Shown here one piece after another: positions 1 to 7,681 of a DNA stretch of 64,000 nt. A model generated the notes under the pieces. The model ran no database searches and was not told the DNA's origin. It was given only the letters and a program-made list of their open reading frames with translations. Position 1 is the stretch's first letter. Every line of letters begins with the position of its first letter. The stretch covers positions 10,388 to 74,387 of the forward strand of contig JBGQJN010000001.1 in NCBI GenBank assembly GCA_041499075.1, given 5' to 3'. The stretch is from Minisyncoccia bacterium (GTDB lineage: Bacteria > Patescibacteriota > Minisyncoccia > 2-02-FULL-40-12 > IGHO2-01-FULL-4-A). Made by a program: the position numbers and the translations under genes.

Positions 1-445
1 TACCGAAATCACGTTTTGAAACCAGGTACTTCTGTATACGGTGCATAATCAAACGGCCAAGCGAGACAAAGATTATGGCAAAAAACCAGGCGCCCAGAAC
101 CAGAAATCTTGAATTGAAAAGAGTCTGCTGCAAAAAGATATAGATGATTACCACCATAATGCTGGCAGAAGAAGCAACGATAACTTTGAAAAATTCCTCC
201 AGAGTTTTACGCGTACTAGACAAGCTATAGAGCCCGGAAATGGCGTAACAAATTATGAAAATCAGCGACATAGTCAAGATCAAAATAAAGTATTTTTCCA
301 AGGGCAGGTTAAACTGAAAAAGTACTGGCCGAAATGAAGACAAAATCTGTGTCCTCAAAAAGTATGTCGTAAGCCCGGCCAGTATAAGCATGATAAAATC
401 AACCGGTAGAAGCAGGGCGCTGAATGTAAGTTCGGCTTTCTTCAT
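1..445 (-). CDS. N-terminal part (gene continues beyond window start) of a polyprenyl glycosylphosphotransferase / bacterial sugar transferase-like membrane protein
   Basis: Minus-strand ATG at 445 reads MKKAELTFSALLLPVDFIMLILAGLTTYFLR, then hydrophobic segments. This pattern is typical of the N-terminal membrane domain of the WbaP/EPS sugar-transferase family. It is not in the ORF track because no stop falls within the window. Confidence 0.4.
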   Translation of the reverse strand, partial: MKKAELTFSALLLPVDFIMLILAGLTTYFLRTQILSSFRPVLFQFNLPLEKYFILILTMSLIFIICYAISGLYSLSSTRKTLEEFFKVIVASSASIMVVIIYIFLQQTLFNSRFLVLGAWFFAIIFVSLGRLIMHRIQKYLVSKRDFG

Positions 446-490
446 GGTGTTAAATCTATTATAAAAAGAGTGAATTTTCAATGACCACTC

Positions 491-516
491 AAAAACCGGC
501 CGTATGGCCGGTTTTT
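491..516 (-). terminator. Rho-independent terminator downstream of rnpB (hairpin CCGGCCAUACGGCCGG plus U-run on minus strand; symmetric)
   Basis: aaaaaccggccgtatggccggttttt is a perfect 6-bp GC stem flanked by A-run and T-run. Confidence 0.6.
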
Positions 517-520
517 GAGT

Positions 521-1031
521 GCTTGGTAAATCTATAAGCCGAATTCTGTTTTTGTGTGATTATTTATCTGGGACCGGTATTGCTACCGACCTCTAGCGTA
601 CTAACTTTTCGAGGCACCACATTACTGCGATGCAACGCTGTACTTGCACCAGGCAGGGTTTAGCGCGACATCCGCCTTGCGGCGGAGCGATCCCGTTCGG
701 GAACTTTTCACCCGCAGTCCACGGCTTGCGCCGTGGAGCTCGGAATAGTCTCTGTGCCACTTTCCCTAGATTTTCCCAGCTCCACTTTTTCTTATTTACA
801 ATATAAGTAAAATTGTAGTTCTAGATTGTACTACTATCTTACCTTTCTAGAAAACTCGAAAAGTGGGGCTGGGTTATATCCGGCGGCCGTTAACCGCTGC
901 CTTTGGCTTCACTAGTGCTACGCACCGCGTCAGTAAACTTAAGCAGTGCTTGCACTGCGTAGCTTTAGCGGAGCAGTGTTCAGACTTTCCTCCCCGACAT
1001 AATGTGGGGGCAATCACCCGATTTACCAAGC
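521..1031 (-). ncRNA. rnpB: RNase P RNA (bacterial ribozyme), unusually long (~510 nt) with an AU-rich internal insertion
   Basis: The minus strand reads GGGGAGGAAAGUCUGAAC near the 5' end, matching the conserved P4 5' strand GGAAAGUCCGGGC. Near the 3' end it reads ACAGAAUUCGGCUUAUAG, matching the conserved ACAGAAnnCGGCUUA; P4 pairing CUGAA/UUCGG is preserved. A GCGCUAAACCC motif resembles CGGUAAAC. The P1 stem pairs GAUUUACCAAGC at 1020-1031 with 521-532. The region is about 600 nt of non-coding, highly structured sequence. Confidence 0.65.
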
Positions 1032-1063
1032 TATTTTAATTATACCAAAAATCAAAAAACGAG

Positions 1064-1498
1064 TCAAAGTAATCTGTTTAGCTCCTTATCCAGCGCCGCA
1101 TTCACGAGACGGTCGGCACCGCGATTTTTTTCGCGAGGTATGTGCTTAAAAAATACATCACCAAAGTCAACCTTGAGATTCCAGAGCTCCAAAAAATGCT
1201 TTTGTATAGTCTTATCCATAATCTTGTAATGACCGTTGAGCTGACGTTCAATCAATTCGCTGTCCAGATGGACTTCTACTGATGCTCGGCCGACAGCTTC
1301 TTTGCCTGCCAATTGTTTGAGTTTTTTCAAGGCAAAAATCACCGCTTGGTATTCGGCATCATTATTGGTGGTTTCCCCGATGTACTCGCTGTATTCCTTC
1401 TTCAGCGATTTGTCGGCTGCTTCTATTACCACGCCGATCGCCGCCGGTCCGGGGTTCCCACGCGATCCCCCATCTGTATGAATTATGTATTTAGTCAT
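1064..1498 (-). CDS. rnhA: Ribonuclease HI
   Basis: N-terminus IHTDGGSRGNPGPAAIGVV is the RNase H type-1 signature; 144 aa. Confidence 0.8.
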   Translation of the reverse strand: MTKYIIHTDGGSRGNPGPAAIGVVIEAADKSLKKEYSEYIGETTNNDAEYQAVIFALKKLKQLAGKEAVGRASVEVHLDSELIERQLNGHYKIMDKTIQKHFLELWNLKVDFGDVFFKHIPREKNRGADRLVNAALDKELNRLL

Positions 1499-2621
1499 AG
1501 TAATTTAGAGCTTCCAACCCGGGTAGTTTGTTGCCGGCAAGGAATTCCAGCATTGCACCGCCGCCGGTTGAGACAAAGCTCATTTTATCCAAAAGCCCGA
1601 GTTTGCCCACAGCGGATATGGTATCACCGCCGCCGATGATAGACACTGCCGCCGAAGCTACGGCAACACTGACGGCGTTAGTGCCTGCGGCAAACTCTTC
1701 TACCTCCGACAAGCCCATCGGCCCGTTCCAAACTACCATAGATGATCCGGCAATAATTTCCGCAAATTTCTTGGCCGTTTCCGGTCCAATATCAACTATC
1801 AAAAACTCCGGCTCAATGTCTTTAACCGCAGAAACTTCCGTACCAGATTTACCAGTTTTGTCATCAGAAATTAAAATATCTTCCGACAATAATATTTTAT
1901 CACTTTTTACGTCCAGTGAAACCGTATCGTCCACAACCGAATAGCCTACGTTGACGCCGTTTGCCTTGAAAAAATTATTCGCTATGGCACCGCCTATCAA
2001 AATTCGCTCCGCTTTGTCCAAAAAATTCTTAATAACCGGCAGTTTAGTTGAGATCTTGGCTCCGCCCATGACCAACACCTTGCCGGCAGAAGGCGCTTCA
2101 ATTGCTTTGGATAGACTCTCCGTTTCTTTTCTTATTAAAAATCCAGCATATGACGGTAAATGCTTAATAATGGCCGCTACCGAGGCGTGGTTACGGTGGC
2201 AAACCGCGAAAGCATCATTGACATAATAGTCAAAACCTGCCGCCAACTCTGCCGCGAATCCATCATCGTTTTTCTCCTCGCGCGGGTCTTGGCGAATATT
2301 ATCAAGGAGTAGTAGCGGACCCACCCCGAATAGTTTATCAACCGCGCCCAGTTCAGAGTGAGGTACCAAGGTAAGGGTATGATTCAGTATCTCGCCCAAT
2401 TCCTCCACTATCGGGCCAAAAGTATCGCCAATATCAATATGGCTAATCAAAAGCATTTTGGCACCGTTCCCCAATAGATAATCTATCGTCTCTTTGTTGG
2501 CTTTAACTTTGAAACTATCGACAATTTTGCCATCCTCCACCGGCACATTAAAATCCACCCGCAGTAAAACTTTTTTGCCGGCCAAATCTTCTTTTTTTAG
2601 CTCTTCTACAAATTTAATCAT
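1491..2621 (-). CDS. pgk: Phosphoglycerate kinase
   Basis: 376 aa with KVLLRVDFNVP and the PGK fold motifs throughout. Confidence 0.9.
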   Translation of the reverse strand: MIKFVEELKKEDLAGKKVLLRVDFNVPVEDGKIVDSFKVKANKETIDYLLGNGAKMLLISHIDIGDTFGPIVEELGEILNHTLTLVPHSELGAVDKLFGVGPLLLLDNIRQDPREEKNDDGFAAELAAGFDYYVNDAFAVCHRNHASVAAIIKHLPSYAGFLIRKETESLSKAIEAPSAGKVLVMGGAKISTKLPVIKNFLDKAERILIGGAIANNFFKANGVNVGYSVVDDTVSLDVKSDKILLSEDILISDDKTGKSGTEVSAVKDIEPEFLIVDIGPETAKKFAEIIAGSSMVVWNGPMGLSEVEEFAAGTNAVSVAVASAAVSIIGGGDTISAVGKLGLLDKMSFVSTGGGAMLEFLAGNKLPGLEALNYYD

Positions 2622-2628
2622 TAATTAA

Positions 2629-3627
2629 TTATACCAAATTTTCGTCTATGGTTTCCAATACCTTTCGCTTAAGATTGTAGCCATTGCCATACTCAAGCAT
2701 GCCCAAGTAAGAATCGGCAACTTCTTTTTTAACACCACAAGAAATCTTTTTAAACATTCGTCTTCTAGTTGTAGTCCTCAAAACTCTGTGATCTGGAAAA
2801 TTGACCCAGCCGAGAAAATCTACACCGGAAGTTATTGTTCTAATTGAGATTTTGTCTTGATGTAATTTCAGATGAAGTTTTCTATCTAAGAACTCCCCTA
2901 TCCTAGATAGAGCCAACCGAAGCCAAACTTTATCTTTGGATAAAACAACAAAGTCGTCAGCATAACGGATATAATATTTGGCACCAAGTTCATGCTTAAT
3001 GAACTGGTCAAACTCATTCATATAAATATTTACAAAAAGCTGGGAGGTCAGATTGCCCAAGGGTAAACCCCTACCATAACCAGCCGAGAAGCTATCAATA
3101 ACTTGCGACAAAAGCAATAATACATCCTGATCGGAAACATATTGAGATAATATGTTTTTCAAAATGACGTGATTAATATTTTCAAAAAACTTTTTGATAT
3201 CACACTTGAGCGTCCAACAAGTTCGGGTGTTGTTACTACTGGCTTGGTAAGCAAAACTTCTGAAATGATTGATAGCTTTGTGCGTTCCCTTGTTTAATCT
3301 GCAGGAAAAAGAATCGGCCACAAAGACCCGATCAAAAAACGGATACAAAATTCTGTAGATAGCATGGTGAAGAAGACGATCTCGGACCGGCGCTTTGTGT
3401 ATATGCCTTGGTTTCGGATCAGAGATATTGAACGCTTGATATCCGCCGTGTTTATATGTATGATTGGCAAGATGCAATTGCAAACTTAATATATTATCCA
3501 TCAGGTTTAACTGAAAGTCCTGCACGTCACGCTTGTTTCGTTTACCTTTAACGAATTCTCGCCAAGCCTCTAGCAAATTATCAACACTAATTATATCCTC
3601 AAATTTATGAGCCAAAATAGTTTTCAT
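2629..3627 (-). CDS. Diversity-generating retroelement reverse transcriptase
   Basis: Contains LPLGNLTSQLFVNIY, where the DGR-specific SQ replaces QG in RT motif 4. Also has the YADDFVV catalytic motif and a DGR-RT-like N-terminus NLLEAWREFVKGKRNKRDV...PVRDRLLHHA. The start is placed at the internal MKTIL (3627); the 383-aa track ORF would overlap avd. Confidence 0.85.
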   Translation of the reverse strand: MKTILAHKFEDIISVDNLLEAWREFVKGKRNKRDVQDFQLNLMDNILSLQLHLANHTYKHGGYQAFNISDPKPRHIHKAPVRDRLLHHAIYRILYPFFDRVFVADSFSCRLNKGTHKAINHFRSFAYQASSNNTRTCWTLKCDIKKFFENINHVILKNILSQYVSDQDVLLLLSQVIDSFSAGYGRGLPLGNLTSQLFVNIYMNEFDQFIKHELGAKYYIRYADDFVVLSKDKVWLRLALSRIGEFLDRKLHLKLHQDKISIRTITSGVDFLGWVNFPDHRVLRTTTRRRMFKKISCGVKKEVADSYLGMLEYGNGYNLKRKVLETIDENLV

Positions 3628-3648
3628 TTCAATAATCCATCTTCTAAG

Positions 3649-3658
3649 CCCCCCCCCC
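3649..3658. repeat. C10/G10 homopolymeric tract in the divergent avd-RT intergenic region
   Basis: Ten consecutive C lie 9 nt upstream of the avd ATG and 21 nt upstream of the RT ATG (opposite strand). Confidence 0.9.
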
Positions 3659-3667
3659 AGGCCTTCA

Positions 3668-4009
3668 ATGTCCATTATCCAAAGATTTGTCGCGGCATAC
3701 AAGCTTTGGCAAGAGTACATCAGCCACTTTCCGAAAAAATCTCGATATACGCTTGGAGGCAAAATTGACTCTCTTTTCATAGATACCGCAGAACTGATGT
3801 TTACTGCAAGTTATCTCACAAAAGACAAGAAACTGCCATATATTCAAAAAGCGTTGGGCACTTTTGATTTATTAAAATTCTTTCTGCAAATAGCTTGGGA
3901 AATCGGATCAATGGATAACAAGAAATATGCTGCGTTATCTGAACCGCTTAGTGAAATAGGAAGAATGCTCGGAGCCTGGTACAAACAAACACAAACCCCG
4001 TCTAAATAG
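3668..4009 (+). CDS. avd: Avd-like accessory variability determinant (four-helix-bundle, 23S rRNA IVS-protein family)
   Basis: 113 aa with FPKKSRYTLGGKIDSLFIDTAELMF...LGTFDLLKFFLQIAWEIG, the pattern of the four-helix-bundle/Avd family. It lies between TR and RT on the opposite strand. Confidence 0.7.
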   Translation: MSIIQRFVAAYKLWQEYISHFPKKSRYTLGGKIDSLFIDTAELMFTASYLTKDKKLPYIQKALGTFDLLKFFLQIAWEIGSMDNKKYAALSEPLSEIGRMLGAWYKQTQTPSK

Positions 4010-4036
4010 GCGGGTTTTGTAAAAATAACATTAGTT

Positions 4037-4168
4037 TCGGACAGCAGCGAAGCGGCAGTTGTCATTCCACCTGTTGTCGTTCCAGTTCAGGTTCAGCTTG
4101 CGCTTCGAGCCGTTCCTGTTGAGGTAAGGCACGTTGCGGTTGTCGTTGCTATTCTGCCACACGGAGCC
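4037..4168 (-). repeat. DGR template repeat (TR)
   Basis: 132 bp, near-identical to 4516-4649 apart from 25 positions. Every one of those is A on the minus strand of TR and G or T in VR. The TR sense strand is rich in AAC codons. Confidence 0.85.
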
Positions 4169-4423
4169 GTGTACAAGATATCATCTTTACCACTGCCCCT
4201 TGAATACTCTCAGGGCTGTATCGTATTTGGGATCTATAATCCTCCAATACCTTGTACCAAGTATTGTTATTTTAAGAGAAACTAGCGAGGCACGCTGAGA
4301 GAAGCCGTAACCGCCCCCATTCTGTCCTGCATAGCTCTAGAATTCGGCCACCGGAAGCCTTAACCGCCGGCAGATTCGCCTAATATCCAGATATATTAGA
4401 ACATATATTTTTATAAAAATGAA

Positions 4424-4458
4424 GAACTCCCGCTCGCGGAAACCGCGAACGGGAGTTA
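4424..4458 (-). promoter_or_regulatory. GC-rich hairpin immediately downstream of VR / target-gene stop (possible DGR homing-associated hairpin or terminator)
   Basis: actcccgctcgcggaaaccgcgaacgggagt is a 13-bp stem, followed on the minus strand by a U-rich run. Confidence 0.5.
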
Positions 4459-4511
4459 GGAGACCAGGGGTCCAGGGATCAACGGACCCAGAACTCCAGG
4501 AATCAGGGAAC

Positions 4512-5120
4512 CTACTTGCGGACAGCAGCGAAGCGGCAGCCGCCACTCCACCCGCCGTCGCTCCAGCCCAGGAACAGCCCGCGCTCCGAGCCGCCCCCGA
4601 TGAGGCAAGGCACGCTGCGGAAGCCGCTGCTATCCTGCCACACGGAGCCAAGAGCGAAGATTGGGAACTCGCGCTGCTTTTCCGGGTAGGTGACACCGAA
4701 GGCCAGTAGCTCAAGGAGAATCGCCGGACGCATGCCCTTTGACTCGAGGTCTTTGAGCACGTCGTCAGTCGACATATTCCGCCCATAGTGAACGAGCTCG
4801 ATGACGACATCCTGCTGGCCGCTGCCTTGGATCGGGAAGTGGTCGGCGTTGATGTCCTCATTCGCCCAGTCGTACTTGCCGGCCACGATCATCTCCTTGA
4901 GGGACTGGCCGTAGTTGACGACGACCTTGTAGCAGTTCTCGGCCACTCCGACCGCCGCGTCGATCAGCTTCAGAACGAACTCGTCGGTCAGCCGCTTGAT
5001 TGTGTCTTCGGACAGGCCGAGGATCGCTTCCTCCGCCTGGCGCAGCTTGACCGCGCCGATGATCCGAGTGGTGATGGTTGATACGAACCCGAACGCCGAA
5101 CCGATCGCTGACTTTGCCAT
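4512..5120 (-). CDS. DGR target protein (202 aa; C-terminal variable region, likely C-type-lectin-fold ligand-binding domain)
   Basis: C-terminus ...WQDSSGFRSVPCLIGGGSERGLFLGWSDGGWSGGCRFAAVRK is encoded by VR. GC content (~60%+) is well above the surrounding ~45%. Confidence 0.7.
   Translation of the reverse strand: MAKSAIGSAFGFVSTITTRIIGAVKLRQAEEAILGLSEDTIKRLTDEFVLKLIDAAVGVAENCYKVVVNYGQSLKEMIVAGKYDWANEDINADHFPIQGSGQQDVVIELVHYGRNMSTDDVLKDLESKGMRPAILLELLAFGVTYPEKQREFPIFALGSVWQDSSGFRSVPCLIGGGSERGLFLGWSDGGWSGGCRFAAVRK
4516..4649 (-). repeat. DGR variable repeat (VR) at 3' end of target gene
   Basis: See the TR entry. VR covers the last ~44 codons of the 4512..5120 ORF and runs to its stop codon. 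Confidence 0.85.
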
Positions 5121-5321
5121 GATCTTTCTCCTTTGTTTGGCTTACCCCTCACCCCATGGATTGCAGGGCCCCAGGCTTGCCGTTTTGGGTACAGCTTACA
5201 GAGCTCAATAAAATAAGCATCTAGAAGCTATACCCAGCCGTAATAAGTAGCCATTTAAAAGTACTATTTTGATAGTTCAATTATAGCAAAATTTAATGAT
5301 AAAGTCAAGCTAGACAAAATA

Positions 5322-6068
5322 CTATCCTAATGTAGCGGCTATTTTCGAAATCTCCGCAAATTCTTGTTTGTGCAAACTGGCACCGCCGATGACGGCGCCG
5401 GATATTTCTGGGTACTTGAGGAAATCAGCTACATTTTTTTCATTAACAGAGCCACCGTACAAACAGCCTGTGGCCGAGAGCTTATAGCTGATAGCTAAAA
5501 AATCTTTAATGATTTTAATGGCCCCAAGCGTATTTTCGGGAGTATCGGGTTCAGCTCCCGGTGCAGTGCTTATCGCCCAAACCGGCTCGTAGGTAATGAG
5601 AATTTTAGAAACTTCGCCGGCATTTAAGCCATTCAAATCAGCAGTTATCTGGTCTTCTAAAATCTTTTTTCTGTCGTCTCCTCTGTTTCGTTCGCCAACA
5701 AGCAAAACCGGGGTTATGCCGGCAGCCAACGCCGCTTTGATTTTTTTATTTATCACCTCGTCGGTTTCGCCTATTTTGTAACGCCTGTCCGAATGACCAA
5801 CCAAGACATGGGTTACGCCAAAATTCTTTAGCATATCCGGAGAAATCTCGCCAGTATAAGGCCCGGACCCCTCCCAAAATATATCTTGGGCGCCAAGATG
5901 TTCTCTGTCTATCTTAGACAGTTCTTCAATAAAAATCACCGGCGGACAGATCACGCTCGTTATACTGGCATATTCGCCGGCAGACTTAACTTCGGCGGCA
6001 AAAAGATCCTGTGCTTCATCTAGCTTAGCCGGGTTCATTTTCCAGTTTGCAATGATAATTTTTGTCAT
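5322..6068 (-). CDS. tpiA: Triosephosphate isomerase
   Basis: IIANWKMN, VGHSDRR and GE motifs of TIM. The start is probably the internal MTKII. Confidence 0.9.
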   Translation of the reverse strand: MTKIIIANWKMNPAKLDEAQDLFAAEVKSAGEYASITSVICPPVIFIEELSKIDREHLGAQDIFWEGSGPYTGEISPDMLKNFGVTHVLVGHSDRRYKIGETDEVINKKIKAALAAGITPVLLVGERNRGDDRKKILEDQITADLNGLNAGEVSKILITYEPVWAISTAPGAEPDTPENTLGAIKIIKDFLAISYKLSATGCLYGGSVNEKNVADFLKYPEISGAVIGGASLHKQEFAEISKIAATLG

Positions 6069-6676
6069 TTCTTTTTTTTGATATGTTTCCAAACAAACCA
6101 GATCAAGCCAACAATAATTACCGCCCCGATCACAAGTTCAAATTTCTGAAAATACGGCCTCAAAACATCCCAGTGATTACCCGTAACATAGCCAATGTAA
6201 ACCAGCGGCAGATTCCAAACTAATGACCCAAGTAGAGTGTACCAAACAAATCTTTTAAAATTAATACGGCTAACACCAATAATCAAAGAACTGAAAGTCC
6301 TGACACCCGGTAAAAGTCTTGAAAAGAAGGCAATCTTCGCTTCATAACGACCTGACCAGCTTTCAAGCTTTCTGACATCGGATTGATTTATCAAAAAGTA
6401 TTTACCGTAACGATCGACTAGCGGCCGTCCACCTAAGAATCCAACGGTATAGATCGCCACCGCTCCGGCAATATTTGCCGCCGTTGCGATCAGTACGATT
6501 AGCCACAGATTAAGTTTGCCGCTTGAAGCTAGGAAACCGCTAAAAGGCAAAACTACCTCTGACGGAATCGGTATGGCGGCGCTTTCAAGCATCATTGTAA
6601 AAAAAATACCGCCATAACCGAACTTGGCAATCAGAGCTAGGGCCCAAGCTACTATTTTTTCTATAATTGGACTCAT
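6065..6676 (-). CDS. DedA/TVP38 family membrane protein
   Basis: 203 aa, multi-transmembrane, with the conserved DedA region FFSRLLPGVRTFSSLIIGVS. Confidence 0.7.
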   Translation of the reverse strand: MSPIIEKIVAWALALIAKFGYGGIFFTMMLESAAIPIPSEVVLPFSGFLASSGKLNLWLIVLIATAANIAGAVAIYTVGFLGGRPLVDRYGKYFLINQSDVRKLESWSGRYEAKIAFFSRLLPGVRTFSSLIIGVSRINFKRFVWYTLLGSLVWNLPLVYIGYVTGNHWDVLRPYFQKFELVIGAVIIVGLIWFVWKHIKKKK

Positions 6677-6679
6677 TTT

Positions 6680-7681
6680 TTAAATATGCGTTTCTTTCAG
6701 TATTTTGGCCGACTCATCCGGGTCAACTACATTTACATCAATGCCACTGCCCAATTCAAAAGCGCCGATCATTGAAACCTTTGGTATTATTTCTATATGC
6801 CAAGTGTAAAAATTATGAGCATCAATTTCTGTTGTATCGAGGGGCGCAGTGTGAATAAAAAAATTGTAATCGGGATTATTCAAACCGGCGTGCATATTTT
6901 TCAACACTATTTGCATAGCTTCGCCTAGATAAGTAAGCTGCTCTTCGGGCATCTTTTCAAAGTGGGCATGGCCTGTCTGCGGGAATATCCGGACTTCGTA
7001 GGGAGTTCTGGAAATAAAAGGACAAAAGGCGATAAAATATTCATTCTCATAAAGTATTCTTTTCTTTTCTTCTTTCTCCCAGTCAATCATGACGTCATAA
7101 ATCCGTTTTTTATTTTTTTTATAGAACTCAGCCGAACCGTTAATGCTCCTTTTGACATCCGGCGGCAGAACCGGAATGGAAATAATTTGGGAATGCGGGT
7201 GCTCGATGCTTGCTCCAGCTTGAGGTCCGTTGTTGTGGAAAATTAAAGTATATTTGCGAGAGCTGTGATCCAGCATGTCGAGATACCTGTCCTGGTAAAT
7301 CTTGAAAACTCTGGCCAATTCTTCTTTTGAAAATTGCCATAATTGCTTATCGTGATCCCTGAAAATCACTATCTCGTGCCGGCCAACGCCGTTTTCAACA
7401 TTGAATGGGCCGGCCTTTTTGATCTGGGCAATTTCACCTTCTAAAACGGCTGGGAATTTATTTTTGGTAACTTTGGCCGACCAGTCTGACTTATCATCAT
7501 TCCAGTAGGTCGCCAAAACCACGTTGCCGTATTTCTCCGGATCTTCAAAAGGGCACTTGTCCTTGGATAGCGCTTCAACCTCGGGCTTTTCTTTTTTGAT
7601 AGTGTCCGGCCTCTTAGCTCTGCCGGTCGCAAACAATACCCATTCGCCGGAAACCAGATCTTCACGAAATTCGTTTAACAT
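6680..7681 (-). CDS. Galactose-1-phosphate uridylyltransferase-like (HIT superfamily, GalT class I)
   Basis: SGEWVLFATGRAKRP plus the HPHSQI (HxHxQ) active-site motif. Confidence 0.6.
   Translation of the reverse strand: MLNEFREDLVSGEWVLFATGRAKRPDTIKKEKPEVEALSKDKCPFEDPEKYGNVVLATYWNDDKSDWSAKVTKNKFPAVLEGEIAQIKKAGPFNVENGVGRHEIVIFRDHDKQLWQFSKEELARVFKIYQDRYLDMLDHSSRKYTLIFHNNGPQAGASIEHPHSQIISIPVLPPDVKRSINGSAEFYKKNKKRIYDVMIDWEKEEKKRILYENEYFIAFCPFISRTPYEVRIFPQTGHAHFEKMPEEQLTYLGEAMQIVLKNMHAGLNNPDYNFFIHTAPLDTTEIDAHNFYTWHIEIIPKVSMIGAFELGSGIDVNVVDPDESAKILKETHI

Follow-up and report, generated by a model that had tools for sequence, protein, structure and literature searches.

The stretch of DNA analysed here, hereafter the window, comprises 64,000 nucleotides of contig JBGQJN010000001.1 (positions 10,388 to 74,387, forward strand) from the Minisyncoccia bacterium assembly GCA_041499075.1. 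Between the host genes tpiA and pgk lies a 2.66-kb block that holds, in order, a small target gene ending in a variable repeat (VR), a template repeat (TR), an inverted avd gene (accessory variability determinant) and a reverse transcriptase (RT) gene. We interpret this block as a complete diversity-generating retroelement (DGR) of the Patescibacteria/Candidate Phyla Radiation (CPR) lineage with the architecture known as B3, and assign this reading a probability of about 0.9. The original prediction had also proposed a complete DGR here, with RT, Avd, TR/VR and target; each component was tested in turn and each was found. All coordinates refer to the window and are collected in Table 1.

The TR and VR align without gaps at an offset of 481 bp. 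The best register pairs 4039–4168 with 4520–4649, with identity continuing one base further (4038/4519), and a repeat search of the window gave the same pair as 4032–4168 and 4513–4649. The repeats first proposed are therefore real, although the VR start placed at 4516 was off by about 3 bp. When the alignment was tabulated by TR base, 26 mismatches were counted in 130 positions, one more than the 25 reported initially, and the claim that all fall on TR adenines holds for every one (26/26 on the minus strand; 21 A>G, 5 A>T). Ten of the 36 TR adenines in this interval are unchanged and the non-adenine positions are identical throughout (94/94); the chance that 26 random mismatches would all fall on 36 adenines among 130 positions is about 1.6e-19. 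As originally described, the VR closes the 202-aa open reading frame (ORF) and the TR is rich in AAC: read in frame, it presents ten AAC and two AAT codons at variable sites. Both repeats share the same 3' end, an identical GC-rich and A-free run of 20 nt beyond which the sequences diverge. The TR has no other target in the window, where it and the VR were the sole matches.

The same pattern extends to related elements. Scanning a single genome for each species, we located target homologues at 80 loci, nearly all from sources labelled as metagenome-assembled genomes (MAGs) of Patescibacteria/CPR; RT and Avd were both located at 45 of these, of which 40 non-redundant loci form the set used for alignments and counts. 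Many of the 80 have no RT or Avd within 4 kb and represent remote targets or contig ends, and some genomes (loci L020, L029, L040, L041 and L076) carry two target paralogues in tandem or close together. Across the 40 loci, 759 of 785 TR/VR mismatches lie at TR adenines, with 64% A>G, 22% A>T and 14% A>C.

The RT is encoded within an ORF (2629–3780, minus strand) that matches Pfam RVT_1 and contains the LGNLTSQLF and YADD motifs already recognised in the original prediction as those of a DGR enzyme. Its start is most likely M52 (3627), because the first 51 codons overlap the opposite-strand avd and homologues are 327–341 aa long. In a comparison with all PDB sequences the best match was 8ub7 (E 1.7e-45), whose alignment runs full length and places IGSLTSQLF and YMDD at the matching positions; group II intron and other RTs follow at E values of about 1e-20. 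The PDB entry is named only 'Reverse transcriptase', but we take it to be the bRT of Bordetella phage BPP-1, which the IGSLTSQLF motif and length of 328 aa fit. Both the motifs ([I/L]GxxxSQ and YxDD) and the closest solved relative point to an RT of the DGR type. Other RT classes score well below their thresholds: 135 bits against the group II intron model TIGR04416 (cut-off 300), 53 bits against the retron model NF038233 (cut-off 235), and values far under the cut-offs for defence-RT models. No DGR-RT model reported a match in the NCBIfam scan, and Rfam scans of the window contained no group II intron or retron RNA. The Avd gene predicted between RT and TR is likewise present (Pfam PF22296, bAvd, 46.6 bits, above the cut-off of 40) and encodes 113 aa, in an opposite-strand orientation that the earlier description had not mentioned. 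Beyond the cassette, the window holds no further homologues of target, RT or Avd.

The C-terminal part of the target adopts a C-type-lectin (CLec) fold that carries the VR. Its 254 homologues are nearly all of about 200–215 aa and unnamed, with labelled examples from Yanofsky-, Niyogi-, Kerfeld-, Lipton- and Azambacteria. The alignment of this family reveals a conserved core and the C-terminal pattern GSVWxxxxGxRxVPxLxxxGSxRxLxLxWxxxxWxxxCRFAAVRK, and its hypervariable positions coincide with the AAC codons of the TR. The target belongs to no Pfam or NCBIfam family, and a profile search of the PDB returned spurious helical-repeat matches only. No similarity detectable by hidden Markov models (HMMs) links it to TvpA of Treponema denticola or to other CLec/FGE variable proteins; unlike TvpA, it has no lipoprotein signal and has an N-terminal helical region of about 60 residues, itself with no known fold relative. 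The best 19-residue Kyte-Doolittle window in this N-terminal helix scores a moderately hydrophobic 1.38, and values of at least 1.6, which are transmembrane-like, occur in 21 of 60 relatives. The initial view of the target as cytoplasmic-looking is accordingly not secure, and a membrane anchor at the N-terminus is conceivable.

The composition of the target sets it apart from its surroundings. Its GC content is 62% and its GC content at third codon positions (GC3) is 0.815 (family mean 0.72), against a GC3 of 0.41–0.54 in host genes and 0.38–0.41 in RT and avd. Only the ORF and the TR show the contrast, and the stretch just 5' of the ORF is AT-rich. So abrupt a shift (GC 0.62 in the target, 0.38 in the RT and about 0.45 in the host) could in principle reflect an assembly chimera in which a GC-rich target was misjoined to an AT-rich CPR contig. 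We regard this as extremely improbable, as the same junctions recur in independent assemblies and the GC-rich VR matches a TR that lies beside the AT-rich avd and RT. Moreover, cassettes related to this one repeat the contrast in different genomes: outside the VR, the target exceeds its flanks in GC content at 39 of 40 loci (mean +0.12) and likewise exceeds the RT at 39 of 40 (mean +0.17).

The order of parts was first observed in four cassettes of the family in unrelated genomic contexts. All 45 loci with both RT and Avd, almost all of them labelled as Patescibacteria/CPR MAGs, share it: target-VR, a spacer of 236–549 nt, TR, 21–67 nt, inverted avd and RT. TR-(avd)-RT with avd on the reverse strand is the B3 architecture described as typical of CPR DGRs (Wu et al., 2018; NAR, PMC5758913), and in a CPR-restricted DGR clade 2 the targets contain neither transmembrane nor known domains (Roux et al., 2021; Nat Commun, PMC8144416). 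The element shares with these systems its gene order, inverted avd, host lineage, cellular chromosomal location and small target without a Pfam or transmembrane domain, and we noted no difference from the published description in the parts of those papers available to us. Since the inverted avd is the published architecture of the group, we regard the element as an ordinary representative of a known class of CPR DGRs, typical of its clade and not special.

Table 1. Features of the DGR cassette and its flanks, in window coordinates.
Feature	Position	Strand	Basis or remarks
pgk (host gene, downstream flank of the insert)	1491–2621	minus	Pfam PGK, 358 bits
Right copy of imperfect 15-bp direct repeat	2610–2624		spans the pgk start codon
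DGR reverse transcriptase	2629–3627	minus	332 aa from M52; RVT_1, motifs, PDB match
C10 tract (G10 on the RT-sense strand)	3649–3658		in the 40 bp that separate the divergent starts of avd and RT
avd	3668–4009	plus	inverted relative to RT, TR and target; Pfam bAvd
Hairpin with T-runs at the convergent avd and TR-RNA ends	3997–4014		candidate bidirectional terminator, or stem-loop just 3' of the TR
Template repeat (TR)	4038–4168	minus	ungapped alignment to the VR
Structured 5' domain of the TR RNA	4169–4388	minus	40-locus alignment, RNAalifold, covariance model
H1	4371–4350	minus	hairpin with YNMG tetraloop
H6	about 4337–4324 with 4293–4279	minus	carries H2
H2	4319–4296	minus	hairpin with YNMG cap, as H1
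H7	4273–4265 (5' strand), 4030–4022 (3' strand)	minus	A-rich strand with U-rich tail right after the TR
Invariant ACUUGG	4263–4258	minus	just 3' of the H7 5' strand
H3	4257–4246 with 4182–4171	minus	12 bp; encloses H4 and H5; 3' arm ends 3 nt before the TR
H4	4242–4230	minus	variable insertion in some relatives
H5	4216–4195	minus	helix inside H3
Extended -10 promoter-like element (TGnTAnAAT) for the TR RNA	4395–4403	minus	conserved alignment columns upstream of H1; inferred
15-bp GC-rich hairpin with T-run (predicted target terminator)	4425–4457	minus	62 nt after the VR; kept in relatives
YCTGG/CTTGG pentamer array	4464–4508	minus	between target stop codon and hairpin; spacing 8–11 nt
Target gene	4512–5120	minus	202 aa; N-terminal helical region and C-terminal C-type-lectin-fold domain; GC3 0.815
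Variable repeat (VR)	4519–4649	minus	codons 158–201 of the target
Sigma-70-like target promoter (TTGACT-17-TATAAT with TG)	5280–5308	minus	11/12 match; spans the left repeat copy; predicted
Left copy of imperfect 15-bp direct repeat	5289–5303		degenerate duplicate of the pgk start region
tpiA (host gene, upstream flank of the insert)	5322–6092	minus	Pfam TIM, 214 bits

The stretch between the target terminator and the TR is conserved among cassettes whose target proteins are 45–73% identical. We aligned this 5' domain across the 40 loci with plain MAFFT and folded the alignment with RNAalifold, which predicted 39 pairs, 34 of them with compensatory double changes. In the predicted pairs 96.5% of alignment cells are paired, compared with 74% in column shuffles and 42–48% when the partners are slid by 1–3 columns, and double-change cells number 366, compared with 106 in the shuffles and about 80 with slid partners. 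G-U pairs are frequent, which sets the strand of the structure as that of the TR sense (minus in the window). This shows that the ~220 nt between target terminator and TR form a conserved RNA structure on the TR-sense strand. The tetraloops of H1 and H2 read UACG, UAAG or CACG and sit on a conserved G-U / G-C / U-G top. For H6 and H7, duplex energies of each locus's own partner strands were compared with those of partners taken from other loci. The cognate means (-11.3 kcal/mol for H6 and -7.7 kcal/mol for H7) are lower than the non-cognate ones (-7.8 and -4.6 kcal/mol, respectively), and none of 5000 permutations reached the cognate value in either case. The H7 pairing was also recovered as an inverted repeat in the repeat search of the window. 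We also considered whether the invariant ACUUGG might pair with the 3' flank of the TR or the YCTGG repeats described below, and rejected this: no covariation was seen, and where the motif changes to AGUUGG the repeats stay CTTGG.

A covariance model (R1) built on the H3–H5 domain found one site per cassette in 48 of 86 sources (two in locus L033), always on the target strand, and a single site in the 64-kb window (4168–4276, minus strand). It had no match in relatives without a DGR and none outside cassettes in the 1.1 Mb searched. Matches were also obtained in IMG/VR contigs with B3-type RTs 46–58% identical, some of them beside unrelated targets, and none in DGRs with RTs about 30% identical. 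The RT-associated RNA motifs in Rfam comprise RT-1 to RT-19, with the Bordetella spacer represented by RT-10 (Weinberg et al., 2017; PMC5737381). The domain described here matched no Rfam family at gathering score in the window and none at E values up to 1 in positions 400–5300, and the same scans assign it to none of RT-1 to RT-19, including RT-10.

On the other side of the TR, a scan of the plus strand for terminators found the hairpin at 3997–4014, which overlaps the avd stop codon, and all 40 loci have a covarying hairpin followed by a U-run about 45–60 nt past the TR on the TR-sense strand. Because of this hairpin and U-run, and of the conserved -10 element upstream of H1, the TR is apparently made as a separate RNA of ~400 nt. 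The conserved 220 nt could alternatively lie outside the DGR RNA, as a DNA-level regulatory region, a small ORF or a linked but unrelated small RNA. In favour of this, the structured spacer of the Bordetella phage element sits 3' of its TR, and gene callers sometimes place ORFs of 52–60 aa nearby. Those ORFs, however, overlap the TR and not the domain, and the extent of pairing and compensation speaks for RNA, with the abundant G-U pairs fixing its strand as that of the TR. H7 joins the domain to the tail right after the TR, H3 stops just short of the TR, and the domain occurs once per cassette and nowhere else in the sequence searched. We therefore consider a separate origin of the region improbable and treat it as the 5' part of the TR RNA.

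The sequence downstream of the VR differs from that downstream of the TR. YCTGG/CTTGG pentamers occur 2.95 times per 95 nt after the VR, compared with 0.43 in the flanks, an approximately 7-fold enrichment across the 40 loci, and are absent after the TR. These VR-specific pentamers are candidates for target-site recognition; their sequence recurs in the TR RNA as the invariant ACUUGG at 4263–4258, with which they do not covary. The 15-bp GC-rich hairpin beyond them resembles, in its position, the GC-rich inverted repeat that follows the IMH (for initiation of mutagenic homing) site of other elements.

We next compared the element with the DGR of phage BPP-1 (mtd-avd-TR-brt). The two share adenine-specific transfer from TR to VR, an Avd, a C-terminal VR in a CLec fold and an RT of the same family that aligns over its full length with IGxxxSQ and YxDD motifs. 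They are also alike in the GC-rich 3' end of TR and VR and the GC-rich hairpin downstream of the VR, in a duplex joining sequence upstream and downstream of the TR (H7 here, avd:Sp in BPP-1), and in stem-loops of ~9 bp capped by tetraloops. The RNA required for BPP-1 cDNA synthesis consists of 20 nt of avd, the TR and a 140-nt 3' spacer. From this spacer come a stem-loop that binds Avd, the primer, elements that bind the RT, and one strand of a stop duplex whose other strand is the upstream avd segment (Handa et al., bioRxiv 10.1101/2023.10.23.563531). In the present element, by contrast, avd is inverted and so cannot be the source of the upstream RNA strand. Only about 55 nt of 3' spacer precede the terminator that overlaps the avd stop, with antisense avd beyond, whereas structure occupies ~220 nt on the 5' side of the TR. 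In the bracketing duplex, the upstream strand is ~100 nt from the TR, with H3–H5 in between. This is beyond the range of the survey of 278 other DGRs by Handa et al., which covered the 40 nt before and the 100 nt after the TR. Two further differences are the lack of an Rfam RT-10 match in our element and the nature of its target, a small cellular protein and not a phage tail fibre.

By analogy with BPP-1, these features suggest how the element could work. The TR would be transcribed as its own RNA of ~400 nt, running from the conserved extended -10 near 4400 to the hairpin and U-run at ~4000, with structure mostly 5' of the TR (H1, H2 carried on H6, and H3–H5) plus H7 bracketing it. This RNA would assemble with the RT and a pentameric Avd, set the TR 3' end for self-primed cDNA synthesis and halt synthesis at the TR 5' end, so confining mutagenesis to the TR template. 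Within it, H7 and H3 would be the bracket and stop, the tetraloop-capped H1 and H2 are candidates for binding Avd, and H3–H5 with the conserved single strands are candidates for binding the RT. The adenine-mutagenised cDNA would then replace the VR, at a site potentially marked by the common GC-rich 3' end of TR and VR together with the VR-specific YCTGG repeats and the 15-bp hairpin. The outcome would be diversification of ~21 codons of a ligand-binding surface.

Some results weigh against parts of this interpretation. The Avd scores 69 bits against the NCBIfam model for DGR Avd (NF033474), below its cut-off of 80, and a PDB search detected no solved relative from its sequence. The promoter, terminator and ends of the TR RNA were placed from conservation alone, and the functional roles given to H1–H7 come from analogy. 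The priming nucleotide was not located, and a candidate pairing that would dock the tail lacks covariation: a scan of alignment columns hinted that J4/5 (AAUA) pairs with the 3' tail, but examined locus by locus it showed no consistent covariation and was rejected. Finally, look-ups of the exact target, RT and Avd proteins gave four carrying contigs, all identical, and thus no VR variant of this element.

That last observation bears on whether the element still diversifies its target. The window is identical to contigs from JGI 3300052991, the NCBI MAG GCA_041486835.1 and Logan SRR35969162, and one metagenome scan with a TR-adjacent pattern found relatives and not this element. The cassette could thus be a fossil, structurally complete with a frozen VR and its diversification over: all four contigs carry the same VR, and ten assemblies of a sister element likewise have one identical VR among them. 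By their design, however, exact-protein look-ups miss any VR variant, and a single study may be the origin of the contigs. The three ORFs are intact, and the RNA domain, promoters and hairpins are conserved. The perfect identity of TR and VR at non-adenine positions indicates homing that is recent relative to the point-mutation rate. Furthermore, L004 and L099, which belong to a sister element whose target is 73% identical, match at 98% over 3 kb and do not differ in the TR; about 22 of their ~30 substitutions fall inside the 100-bp VR. Several other cassettes pair identical TRs with different VRs. These patterns indicate that the clade is active, and we consider a fossil unlikely in the present case; with its genes intact and its non-adenine positions unchanged, this copy is probably active. 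Within the sister element we also observed that L004/L005 and L006 have the same VR and target protein and two TR alleles (TR ~7031–7162), which differ at former adenines (CAGAAT/CGGCAT, AACAGG/AACCGG and GACAAC/GACCAG); the TR of one of these lineages has apparently lost adenines.

The cassette was proposed from the outset to interrupt a normally contiguous pgk-tpiA pair, and comparison with related genomes bears this out. Three Yanofskybacteria genomes (Pgk 66–72% identical) keep the synteny adk-map-GT2-galT-like-VTT-tpiA-pgk-rnhA, and in these tpiA and pgk either overlap or are separated by 10 nt, and the DGR is absent. As the two genes are adjacent in all three, the ~2.66-kb cassette is an insertion. 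Copies of an imperfect 15-bp direct repeat flank it, ATGATTAAATTT at pgk and ATCATTAAATTT beside tpiA; they agree at 13 of 15 positions, and the left copy forms the spacer of the strong target promoter (5308–5280). Homologous cassettes elsewhere lie between RNR and comEC, between rpoC and ftsK, and between thiaminase-like and PEMT-like genes; from these differing contexts it follows that the module has moved. The closest Pgk homologues and most target homologues come from Yanofskybacteria and other Parcubacteria. The pgk start lies 7 nt past the RT stop, and pgk transcription may now depend on the cassette. A promoter-like site (TGGAAA-18-TATAAT with TG; 2628–2657, minus strand) is found inside the RT 3' end, directly upstream of pgk. 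Elsewhere in the window, a bacterial class A RNase P RNA was noted at ~519–1010 (minus strand), for which Rfam gave 87.6 bits, under the gathering score of 100, with a match at 519–845. By eye, the conserved GAGGAAAGUC is present at 977–993 and an AT-rich insertion at ~780–850, so that the gene probably spans ~490 nt including the insertion.

A further conserved feature lies in the gap between the starts of the divergent avd and RT. The C10/G10 tract located there is the sole G/C homopolymer of at least 7 in the 64-kb window. Among the 40 non-redundant loci, the gap holds G7–14 (mode 10) in 29 and (CT)9–17 in six, and more distant B3 elements do not have the tract. The occurrence of two types of simple repeat at one position suggests a contingency, phase-variation or polypurine/polypyrimidine regulatory tract, for which the evidence of length switching is thin. 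L004 and L006 have G7 and L099 has G8 with 300-bp flanks that are 100% identical, but G7 recurs in all ten assemblies of one sister clone, and a tract of this length is therefore not wildly unstable. A difference between L011 and L095 (G14 and G18) was not counted as tract variation, since a deletion of 26–32 bp next to it could point to an assembly artefact. Speculatively, the G10 tract might modulate expression of the machinery. We tentatively propose, as a model that is rather more likely to fail than to hold, that CPR B3 DGRs combine a rearranged, independent template RNA of ~400 nt, with its protein-binding and stop elements 5' of the TR, with a hypermutable G(n)/(CT)n tract that switches the machinery, and would thus act as phase-variable mutators. 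The parts of the cited papers available to us, a set that excludes Paul et al., 2017, mention neither the structured RNA 5' of the TR nor the simple-sequence tract of the avd/RT gap, and neither the high GC3 of the target nor the YCTGG array.

The element itself adds one example to a well-populated CPR clade whose target family has more than 250 homologues. The interest lies less in this copy than in how DGR RNA is organised and controlled at the level of the clade. Mechanistic understanding of DGRs has so far come from one phage element with a structured spacer 3' of the TR, and the covariation across at least 40 cassettes defines another layout, in which structure is found mostly upstream of the TR. 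An RNA of ~400 nt, an RT of ~330 aa and an Avd of 113 aa together make a compact set for in vitro work and a candidate for engineered targeted mutagenesis. If the tract between avd and RT is hypermutable, it would bring a new level of control to a hypermutation system. The high GC3 of the target and the YCTGG array are family-wide features, and may bear on how the cDNA finds its target, the least understood step in DGR biology.

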